From Escherichia coli (GTDB taxonomy: Bacteria; Pseudomonadota; Gammaproteobacteria; Enterobacterales; Enterobacteriaceae), in assembly GCF_044324875.1 (NCBI RefSeq), contig NZ_CP172185.1: a DNA stretch of 64,000 nucleotides. One strand, given 5' to 3'. Positions 48,425 through 50,188 of this stretch are shown piece by piece. The translations under genes were made by a program, and so were the position numbers. Each line of letters starts with the position of its first letter. The stretch's first letter is position 1. The notes under the pieces are model-generated. The model searched no databases. It was not told the DNA's origin and saw nothing but the letters and a program-made list of their open reading frames with translations.

Positions 48425-48567
48425 TTGTAGTTATCTCTCACCTCGCCGATACAGGAGGTGCAAATTGAGGGAGTACCACGAACCGCAAACCAGAAGCGGA
48501 AACGTAAAAGAAGCCGAGCCAATGGATAAGTACTAGATAGACCAAGCCCAACGAATACCAAGGCCCA

Positions 48568-48598
48568 GAAATGACAAAACCCGCTCGACGGCGGGTTT
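48568..48598 (-). terminator. tR'-like rho-independent terminator upstream of holin
   Basis: Minus-strand hairpin aacccgc-cgtcga-gcgggtt followed by TTTTGT; located between the expected late promoter region and the holin start. Confidence 0.5.
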
Positions 48599-48755
48599 AA
48601 GCTGTGTGGCAAAGTAACCACTCTTAACACGATATAATACTTTTTGCGTACGCGTTAACTTTTTCTGTAGTATTTAGTGTAAGATTCTTCACAAGATAGA
48701 TACTTTGGAGTACATGATGTAAAGTGCTGTATGCATAAACAGTACAAAGGATATC

Positions 48756-49277
48756 ATGATGAACAAATTAGCACGCTTATTATTAACAGCCAGCTCAATT
48801 GCACCTGTTTGCGCAACTCTATTTTTTATTGGATATGTAAAAGATACGGTTTGGCTGATGCAATATAGCTTATGCGTTGGCATAGCAAGTTGGTTATTAG
48901 CAATAGGCCTGATTCAATATGCTGAGAAACAACTTGAACCTCTGACAAAAAATATTAGTTCAGTTTCTCCCGCTAACAAAGAAGTAACTAATTATTTCTT
49001 AAGCTATTTATTCCCTCTCCTAGGAACAGATTCTATTGCTGAAAATAAAGCATATGCGTTATTCTTTTATTTATCATTGTTATTTTACATCAGCTTTTCC
49101 GAGAACTATAACTTTAACCCAGTATTGTCACTTATCGGTTATAAATTTTACGAAGCTGAAGATGACACCGGCGTAGGTTTTGTATTGATTTCTAAATCAG
49201 TTATTACTGATATTAAAGATATCAAATTTACAGTTATTCAATTAACAGACTACACATTTCTACATGTTAAAGGATAA
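48756..49277 (+). CDS. Hypothetical small polytopic membrane protein (cargo gene B1)
   Basis: 173 aa; 2-4 hydrophobic helices then ~50 aa soluble tail; SD aaagga 7 nt upstream; strongly AT-rich; opposite strand to late operon. Confidence 0.6.
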   Translation: MMNKLARLLLTASSIAPVCATLFFIGYVKDTVWLMQYSLCVGIASWLLAIGLIQYAEKQLEPLTKNISSVSPANKEVTNYFLSYLFPLLGTDSIAENKAYALFFYLSLLFYISFSENYNFNPVLSLIGYKFYEAEDDTGVGFVLISKSVITDIKDIKFTVIQLTDYTFLHVKG

Positions 49278-49282
49278 TAACC

Positions 49283-50167
49283 ATGGCACTTTTTGCAGTA
49301 ATAGATAATACAATTGCAACGAGAATTGTTAGAGTCGAACTTGATGCAACAGCAAGTACTTCTGTTACGGCCATTTTCCAACAACAGCGTCAATATTTTG
49401 AAAGTCATCATAACAATATGATACCATTCTATGCCGGTTATACACCAAAACATAGTGAGTGTTTTGAAATACAAAACTTTACTGATTCTGCACGCCTGAT
49501 TGACGCAGTCAATAGGCCTACCGCCGTGCCTATCTGGGATCCTAGCCAAATTGATATTGGTTATATTAAAGCATTATTTGTTGGTGTTGACGCGCCAGCA
49601 AACCCCAATATTATTGCACTACAAACTTTCAACAAAAAACAAATCTTAGATACCTCAAAATCATTCTTTGGAAAGCTTTTTGCAAGCAAAACTACCTTTA
49701 GTAAAGCTAATAGCATCGGTTTTAATGTTGATGATAAACTAGTTGCAATAATTATCAATGATACAATACGATTTAAGAGTTTCTTTAATCTAAGAAGCAT
49801 TTTTGACATGTCGTCCTATTTTTCTGCTGCTACTGACCAAGAACTTAATGCATTTAGTCAACTTAGTGTATTTTCTACTCCCCAAGGTTTTGATCTAAAA
49901 TCCGTTGCAGATACAGTGATAAGAAATAAAGTAACACTAATAAATCAGACTGGGATGCTAACACCCCAAAATATGTCAAAGTTTAAATCCGAAGCTGCTA
50001 AAGTTAATTTCCCCTTACAAACCATAATAGTTGGCGGTGTTGAGAAAATTGTCATGCCTTCATCAAAAAAAGAAATAAAAGCCCTTCTTGACTTTCTTGA
50101 GGAAGACATTTGGGTTTCTGGAATAAGTGGAAGACGCTTTAAATCGAATTCAAAGCGCCCAATATAA
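49283..50167 (+). CDS. Hypothetical soluble protein (cargo gene B2), operonic with B1
   Basis: 294 aa; starts 5 bp after B1 stop with its own SD (aagga); strongly AT-rich; no catalytic motif recognisable by eye. Confidence 0.6.
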   Translation: MALFAVIDNTIATRIVRVELDATASTSVTAIFQQQRQYFESHHNNMIPFYAGYTPKHSECFEIQNFTDSARLIDAVNRPTAVPIWDPSQIDIGYIKALFVGVDAPANPNIIALQTFNKKQILDTSKSFFGKLFASKTTFSKANSIGFNVDDKLVAIIINDTIRFKSFFNLRSIFDMSSYFSAATDQELNAFSQLSVFSTPQGFDLKSVADTVIRNKVTLINQTGMLTPQNMSKFKSEAAKVNFPLQTIIVGGVEKIVMPSSKKEIKALLDFLEEDIWVSGISGRRFKSNSKRPI

Positions 50168-50188
50168 CTAGAAGACAGTTAAGAATAG

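Follow-up and report, generated by a model that had tools for sequence, protein, structure and literature searches.

Two coupled genes between Q and the lysis cassette

The DNA analysed here, called the window, is a stretch of 64,000 nucleotides (nt) from Escherichia coli (contig NZ_CP172185.1) that holds an SfII-like lambdoid prophage. Between the antiterminator gene Q and the late promoter/terminator element of this prophage lie two open reading frames (ORFs), B1 and B2, which very probably constitute a Kiwa anti-phage/anti-plasmid system (kwaA, kwaB) of a compact, Enterobacterales-centred clade, carried as prophage cargo. Sequence, gene order and predicted fold place B1 and B2 in the Kiwa family; defence activity, a KwaA-KwaB complex and the regulation of the operon are predictions. 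The features of the locus are listed below, with + and - identifying the strand.

48756..49277, +: kwaA (B1), ORF of 173 amino acids (aa), small inner-membrane protein by family assignment
49283..50167, +: kwaB (B2), ORF of 294 aa, soluble DUF4868 protein
50189..50551, -: Q-like antiterminator (phrog_79 'anti-termination protein Q-like', E 3.9e-46)
48567..48651, -: late-operon leader with intrinsic terminator, presumed pR'/tR' module (terminator scan and conservation)
48598..48577, -: terminator-like hairpin, then TGTCATTTCT (terminator scan)
48098..48424, -: lambda-family holin, first gene of the lysis cassette (TIGR01594 holin_lambda, 121 bits versus a cutoff of 55)
47618..48094, -: endolysin (library match)
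47242..47634, -: Rz-like spanin (library match)

A first-pass annotation, made from the sequence alone, had described a tightly coupled, AT-rich gene pair placed between Q and the terminator/holin on the strand opposite to the surrounding late genes. All these traits hold. The two ORFs have the coordinates it gave, the flanking Q, holin, endolysin and spanin genes are all on the - strand, and the cassette has a GC content of 34.1% versus 51.1% for the whole window. The genes share one strand, the membrane partner comes first, 5 nt separate them, and the AGGA Shine-Dalgarno motif of kwaB (49271..49274) lies within the final kwaA codons. Translation of kwaA is more likely to start at 48759, giving 172 aa, than at 48756, because most B1 homologues are 172 aa long with the second Met as start and because the AGGA at 48748..48751 is better spaced for this Met than for the first ATG. 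The counterpart of the Q gene in E. coli H1827/12 is named 'antiterminator Q family protein' in RefSeq. The region 45500..51000 has no match to any Rfam family.

Assignment to Kiwa and position within the family

Both proteins are covered over essentially their whole length by Kiwa models. Residues 1-172 of B1 align to the 173-position PADLOC KwaA model PDLC00216 (E 1.9e-83) and the protein matches 11 further PADLOC KwaA models more weakly. Its homologues bear the Pfam assignment PF28043 'KwaA'; a Pfam search with B1 itself returned chance matches only, in a release without the KwaA model. The full-length match of B2 is to the PADLOC KwaB model PDLC00225 (E 2.3e-150), with weaker matches to 5 other PADLOC KwaB models and to Pfam PF16162 KwaB/DUF4868 (E 2.1e-7, model positions 16-185 of 186). 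The RefSeq names for identical proteins are 'Kiwa anti-phage protein KwaB-like domain-containing protein' for B2 and 'KwaA family protein' or 'hypothetical protein' for B1. The hydropathy profile of B2 is free of hydrophobic segments. Its description as soluble thus stands, while the statement that it lacks an assignable motif does not, given the Pfam and PADLOC KwaB matches. B1 has two strongly hydrophobic segments which, together with four long helices in its structural model, fit the 2-4 transmembrane helices originally estimated.

AlphaFold monomer predictions of both proteins were based on 42-43 aligned homologues. The KwaA model (predicted local distance difference test, pLDDT, 77) consists of four long helices (2-28, 32-59, 76-96 and 98-114), a strand (62-72) in the loop between helices 2 and 3, and C-terminal strands at 130-136, 141-146, 157-162 and 167-170. 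This arrangement of four helices with a beta-rich loop and carboxyl terminus agrees with the published description of KwaA (PMC11785009). Residues 123-138 are of low confidence (pLDDT <50), with low blocks continuing until ~150, roughly at the position of the flexible DE loop that KwaA is known to have (PMC11785009). The significant fold matches of the KwaA model in the PDB are solved KwaA structures exclusively (9mrg, 9mrx_A, 9mrr; template-modelling scores 0.63-0.70, identity 17-18%). Likewise, the KwaB model, in which a Rossmann-like amino terminus domain is predicted to precede DUF4868, has significant matches to solved KwaB structures exclusively.

The first-pass annotation had noted a loose resemblance to KwaA/KwaB, which the PADLOC, Pfam and fold matches prove correct. 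Its labels 'uncharacterised' and 'conversion module' did not survive: the pair has Kiwa names in RefSeq, is matched end to end by PADLOC models and belongs to a family with a published mechanism (PMC11785009), and a role in conversion has no support in any library. A toxin-antitoxin reading was also considered and found no support from any library searched. Note that the gene call itself adds nothing, Kiwa being already present in PADLOC, Pfam and RefSeq with its mechanism published. What goes beyond the existing annotation is the definition of the slot occupied by the cassette and the predicted SOS control of kwaAB.

In the Kiwa systems studied, KwaA tetramers and KwaB dimers build a fence-like membrane supercomplex that gathers where a phage attaches, KwaB binds DNA through DUF4868 and stalls replication and hence late transcription, and the outcome is surviving cells and lower conjugation; the lambda Gam protein inhibits KwaB (PMC11785009). 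The systems tested came from O55:H7, ECOR8, ECOR12, ECOR49, D9 and Ralstonia; five systems of different clusters all protected against phages, and Kiwa is often located in prophages (PMC11785009). By analogy, KwaA of the present clade would form tetramers in the inner membrane whose cytoplasmic beta-barrel would hold KwaB dimers, and the resulting supercomplex would sense how a phage, on attachment or ejection, or a conjugative pilus disturbs the membrane. This outline is assumed for the clade despite 9-18% identity to the studied proteins. A search of the window with a lambda Gam query sequence found no Gam-like gene.

The comparison with the solved Kiwa systems of E. coli O55:H7 RM12579, ECOR8, ECOR12 and ECOR49 (PDB 9mrx, 9mrg, 9mrr, 9nyu, 9mtn, 9o0i) shows a common two-gene kwaA-kwaB operon and, as far as the models predict, a common architecture: a four-helix KwaA with a cytoplasmic beta-rich module and a two-domain KwaB with DUF4868. 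The proteins in the window are shorter, with 172-173 aa for KwaA versus 177-195 residues in the solved chains, and 294 aa for KwaB versus ~315. Closer relatives share the compact KwaB type. The Klebsiella phage ST846-OXA48phi9.1 protein is 47.5% identical and its genes likewise lie in the Q-holin gap on the opposite strand, preceded by a LexA box, whereas the copy of the Pseudomonas filamentous phage PfAC02a (33% identity) belongs to an inovirus, has Shosta-like genes as neighbours and lacks a LexA box.

Several observations weigh against a plain transfer of the Kiwa annotation. Identity to the solved Kiwa proteins is 9-18%, and PDB sequence searches with B1, with B2 or with a 43-sequence KwaB profile gave no match, so that the relationship to solved Kiwa is visible by fold comparison alone. 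On the NCBIfam KwaA equivalog NF041622, B1 reaches 46 bits (E 5e-12), below the cutoff of 100, which places it, on sequence score, as a KwaA-family member outside the narrow canonical KwaA group. Helices 3 and 4 of B1 are weakly hydrophobic. None of the tested-Kiwa strain names (O55:H7, ECOR8, ECOR12, ECOR49, D9, Ralstonia) appears among the 32 genomes found to carry the cassette, and the literature yielded no experiment on this clade. Lastly, the terminator scan predicts no + strand terminator 3' of kwaB. Since kwaB and Q are convergent, with 21 nt separating their stop codons (50167..50189), antisense transcription may occur in both directions, with kwaAB transcripts entering Q and early-right transcripts passing through Q into kwaB.

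The cassette is found at ≥99% identity in 32 of 5,426 complete E. coli genomes, all 32 with the same lysozyme-holin-Kiwa-Q-DUF968 frame, and is 100% identical in strains H1827/12 and GPEC1035. A megablast search with the cassette against deposited phage genomes matched just its holin-proximal 240 bp. The compact KwaB type is nevertheless a large family (1,051 cluster representatives at E ≤0.001). Loss of the pairing in other genomes had been named as a way to refute the proposed module; kwaA and kwaB were found adjacent in all loci examined (Proteus, Salmonella, Dickeya, Klebsiella phage and ~50 viral contigs), and across ~55 related loci kwaA precedes kwaB with a spacing of -11 to +9 nt. The Proteus mirabilis prophage and Klebsiella phage ST846-OXA48phi9.1 have the pair between Q and holin/lysozyme on the opposite strand; with that of the window, this makes three unrelated prophage lineages that hold the clade between Q and the lysis genes. 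Other copies have different neighbours: an integrase-flanked Salmonella island with a DUF87 protein and a methyltransferase, a Dickeya locus beside an insertion sequence (IS) and near BrxC/D-like or transfer genes, restriction-modification genes elsewhere, and the Pseudomonas filamentous phage, whose 33%-identical copy is annotated KwaA/KwaB.

Both genes are under purifying selection: two E. coli alleles differ by 10 synonymous versus 2 conservative codon changes, and among Enterobacterales relatives (down to ~40-46% identity) ~50 residues of KwaB and 22 of KwaA are invariant. These figures bear on the idea that the cassette is an AT-rich passenger without present function, silenced or in decay. 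Such a fate would suit horizontally acquired AT-rich DNA, which is often silenced by H-NS in E. coli, and an allele as rare as 32 in 5,426 genomes. With intact frames, the excess of synonymous changes, the invariant residues and a conserved regulatory box upstream, it is scarcely credible, and a functional Kiwa operon is the preferred interpretation.

A LexA box over the predicted kwaA promoter

Two regulatory features precede kwaA.

48725..48744, no strand assigned: LexA (SOS) box TGCTGTATGCATAAACAGTA of the form CTGT-N8-ACAG, 11 nt upstream of the first kwaA ATG and 14 nt upstream of 48759
48697..48725, +: predicted kwaAB promoter, with -35 TAGATA (48697..48702), a 17-nt spacer and -10 TAAAGT (48720..48725)

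The shared palindrome emerged on aligning kwaA-upstream DNA from five unrelated contexts, and the kwaA copy is the sole CTGT-N8-ACAG in the window. Its conservation was assessed in 54 viral contigs encoding KwaB relatives, among which 53 loci have kwaA and enough upstream DNA. A perfect core lies 14-25 nt upstream of kwaA in 49 of the 53 loci, and 51 of them have at most one core mismatch. The box occurs as 22 distinct 20-mers whose arms are intact and whose spacer varies; information content is 2.0 bits per position in the arms and 0-0.5 bits in the flanks. The more distant members L074 and L077 also have it. It is absent before kwaA in a low-GC locus and in the Pf-phage copy.

The boxes were scored with a position weight matrix (PWM) built from 16 E. 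coli SOS boxes. The kwaA box scores 23.1 bits, with 13.4-27.1 for known boxes and a maximum of 16.8 in shuffled sequence, and the boxes of the Kiwa loci (20.5-27.5 bits) fall inside the E. coli SOS-box range. Sites of ≥17 bits across the Kiwa loci number 50 within 40 nt of kwaA versus 18 in the other 436 kb. Within the window only the uvrB box (17473..17492, 23.3 bits) is comparable; it belongs to the PWM training set and serves as a sanity check only. The host uvrB gene (15377..17398) has this SOS box 75 nt upstream and is ~10 kb from the prophage end. In ten loci (L041, L042, L044, L047, L048, L055, L065, L066, L067, L070) further LexA boxes of 24-28 bits are found 3-4.5 kb downstream of kwaA, where they presumably precede other SOS-controlled phage genes.

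The -10 hexamer of the promoter, which was read from the sequence, ends on position 1 of the box. Related loci commonly have a TAnnnT hexamer that ends at this same position, with weak conservation ~17 nt further upstream. A generic promoter scan with a 9-of-12 threshold detected none upstream of kwaA, and its total was no higher than in shuffled sequence. LexA bound at the box would occlude this promoter, and the overlap of a conserved box with a predicted promoter suggests that kwaAB is kept low by LexA and raised in the SOS response. The first-pass annotation had proposed expression from the repressed prophage. Independence from the late operon is retained; a promoter that is simply 'on' is doubtful with a LexA box over its predicted position, and kwaAB would probably be low under LexA and induced by DNA damage.

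Against SOS control count the make-up of the PWM, a hand-compiled set of 16 box sequences, and the kwaAB promoter, which is itself a prediction. Tight LexA repression also fits awkwardly with a sensor that must be in the membrane before a phage lands. LexA-repressed promoters usually retain some basal expression, however, and this may suffice for a pre-placed sensor. On balance, true LexA-regulon membership of this compact Kiwa clade, which is found in Enterobacterales and related Gammaproteobacteria, is rather probable; the clade would then act against foreign DNA at the entry stage, as a barrier strengthened by DNA damage. DNA damage also induces neighbouring prophages, and the entry of conjugative single-stranded DNA triggers the SOS response. 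The box here has the 20-bp TACTG(TA)5CAGTA-type palindrome that lies over or beside the promoters of uvrB, recN, umuDC and sulA. The products of those genes repair or tolerate DNA damage, whereas the Kiwa operon would be a barrier against incoming DNA and its binding by LexA is predicted.

The box is not a property of all Kiwa, a reading rejected on the Pf-phage and low-GC copies that lack it, nor of the slot, whose other cargos have no box. Full-text searches linking Kiwa with LexA, or DUF4868 with SOS, gave nothing relevant, and the text of the Kiwa preprint makes no mention of LexA or SOS (PMC11785009). The box is a feature of the operon described here; for the O55:H7/ECOR systems the comparison covers the text of that paper. 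General links between SOS and the expression of defence systems are discussed in other literature.

The same box predicts derepression of kwaAB by the signal that cleaves the S24-type prophage repressor (56398..57072). The pair could then mainly serve the induced prophage, being switched on with the lytic cycle and shielding the virus-producing cell from superinfecting phages rather than providing standing immunity to the lysogen. That three unrelated prophage lineages have the clade in the Q-lysis gap, and that it stands beside a CI-like repressor in L077, is in keeping with such a role. The boxed cassette is also present outside prophages, namely in the integrase-flanked island of Salmonella and next to the IS in Dickeya, where there is no lytic cycle to protect, and the basal expression usual for LexA-repressed promoters argues in the same direction. 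A role confined mainly to the induced prophage is therefore unlikely, and the Kiwa reading given at the outset is favoured. In the low-GC prophage of L077 the distant Kiwa pair (1094..3273), with a 24-bit LexA box, is directly downstream of the CI-like S24 repressor gene, and thus in the immunity region and not in the Q-lysis gap.

The prophage in the window codes for a LexA-related protein of its own.

52754..53080, -: LexA DNA-binding-domain-only protein, 108 aa (domain complete; PF01726, E 3.8e-19), aligning to LexA residues 1-91

It is encoded in the RusA/methyltransferase region, is conserved in related prophages and has no S24 self-cleavage domain, which would put it beyond RecA-stimulated self-cleavage. 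Judged from its domain, it might bind SOS boxes, that of kwaA included, and it could re-occupy the kwaA box during lytic growth. In GIL01, late genes are known to be controlled by a LexA homologue that the phage itself encodes (PMC6182141).

The footprint across loci thus predicts LexA control of one large Kiwa clade. If confirmed, it would offer an easily tested case of a membrane-level anti-phage/anti-plasmid system wired into the SOS response, and the predicted control bears on how and when defence systems are expressed.

A cargo slot between Q and the late leader

The limits of the cassette are defined by breaks in homology to related prophages. On the holin side, the similarity shared with Shigella phage SfII and with E. 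coli prophages carrying different cargo ends at 48658..48682; on the Q side it returns at 50208..50210, or at 50435 where the Q allele differs too. The segment between these junctions and its alternatives are given below.

48670..50209, no strand assigned: swapped cargo segment (predicted promoter, kwaAB and last Q codons), cassette-specific DNA by homology breaks
Q-to-leader slot, opposite strand: PDC-M53A/B, in Shigella phage SfII
Q-to-leader slot, opposite strand: TIR-domain protein, in a related E. coli prophage
Q-to-leader slot, opposite strand: KAP NTPase, in a related E. coli prophage
Q-to-leader slot, opposite strand: TIGR04255 protein and two hypothetical proteins, in a related E. coli prophage
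Q-to-leader slot, opposite strand: OmpC/NmpC-type porin, in a DLP12-like prophage

These five kinds of cargo, all on the opposite strand, occupy the same junctions. The prophages that carry them share with the window the frame KilA-N, DUF968 and Q, then cargo, then leader-terminator, holin, lysozyme and spanin; they differ in their unrelated cargo proteins and in the lack of an upstream LexA box. The segment thus has the traits of a cargo slot: it is variable, bears unrelated genes at shared junctions, differs in GC content (34% versus 51%) and is oriented independently of its surroundings. The Q-to-leader gap of SfII/DLP12-type prophages appears as an exchange slot in loci L003, L012, L013, L014 and L018 and in the window (48670..50209). 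Where the cargo is the TIR protein or the KAP NTPase, Q differs as well over its 3' two-thirds. The proposal of a defence module set as an opposite-strand moron in the Q-lysis gap is supported both by the Kiwa identity and by these alternative cargos.

No direct or inverted repeats were found flanking the cassette, and nothing points to insertion by a transposon or an integrase. The simplest reading, because such repeats are absent, is exchange through recombination in the conserved flanks. The leader/terminator core on the holin side is almost unchanged between SfII, a DLP12-like prophage and an Stx2a phage; in the last of these the element follows Q at a distance of 16 bp and precedes stx2AB, the position known to hold the late promoter pR' and terminator tR' in Stx phages. 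The Kiwa cassette would accordingly lie between the Q reading frame and the predicted pR', so that late transcription would not run antisense through kwaAB.

The company kept by the clade also bears on its role. As a divergent group with a Kiwa fold, it might have a primary role linked to DNA damage, for instance tethering or excluding DNA at the membrane during the SOS response, with no real anti-phage activity. Its great sequence distance from the tested systems, a type of control typical of repair and damage-tolerance genes and a literature in which no experiment on the clade was found leave room for this idea. The slot, however, also receives PDC-M53, TIR and KAP NTPase cargo, which is defence-like and mobile company, the clade is also found beside BREX-like and restriction-modification genes, and the five Kiwa systems tested, from different clusters, were all phage-protective (PMC11785009). 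A primarily damage-related function is very improbable and a role in defence remains the preferred one.

A precise exchange slot is thus defined in SfII/DLP12-type prophages, reaching from Q to the presumed late promoter/terminator element. Defence cargos that are unrelated and lie on the opposite strand interchange there, which makes the slot a place to seek new systems.

A second AT-rich island (45877..47078, 30-37% GC) is found between the spanin genes and the HNH/terminase genes of the same prophage. It holds two ORFs.

45877..46332, -: ORF of 151 aa with a hydrophobic amino terminus (phrog_6169)
46509..47078, +: ORF of 189 aa (phrog_12494)

Neither protein has a match in PADLOC, NCBIfam, Pfam, PDB or the phage collection. 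The island looks like a second cargo slot, because relatives bear other genes there. On visual inspection, the 189-aa protein displays a PD-(D/E)xK-like pattern (AVDISL ... IEIK).

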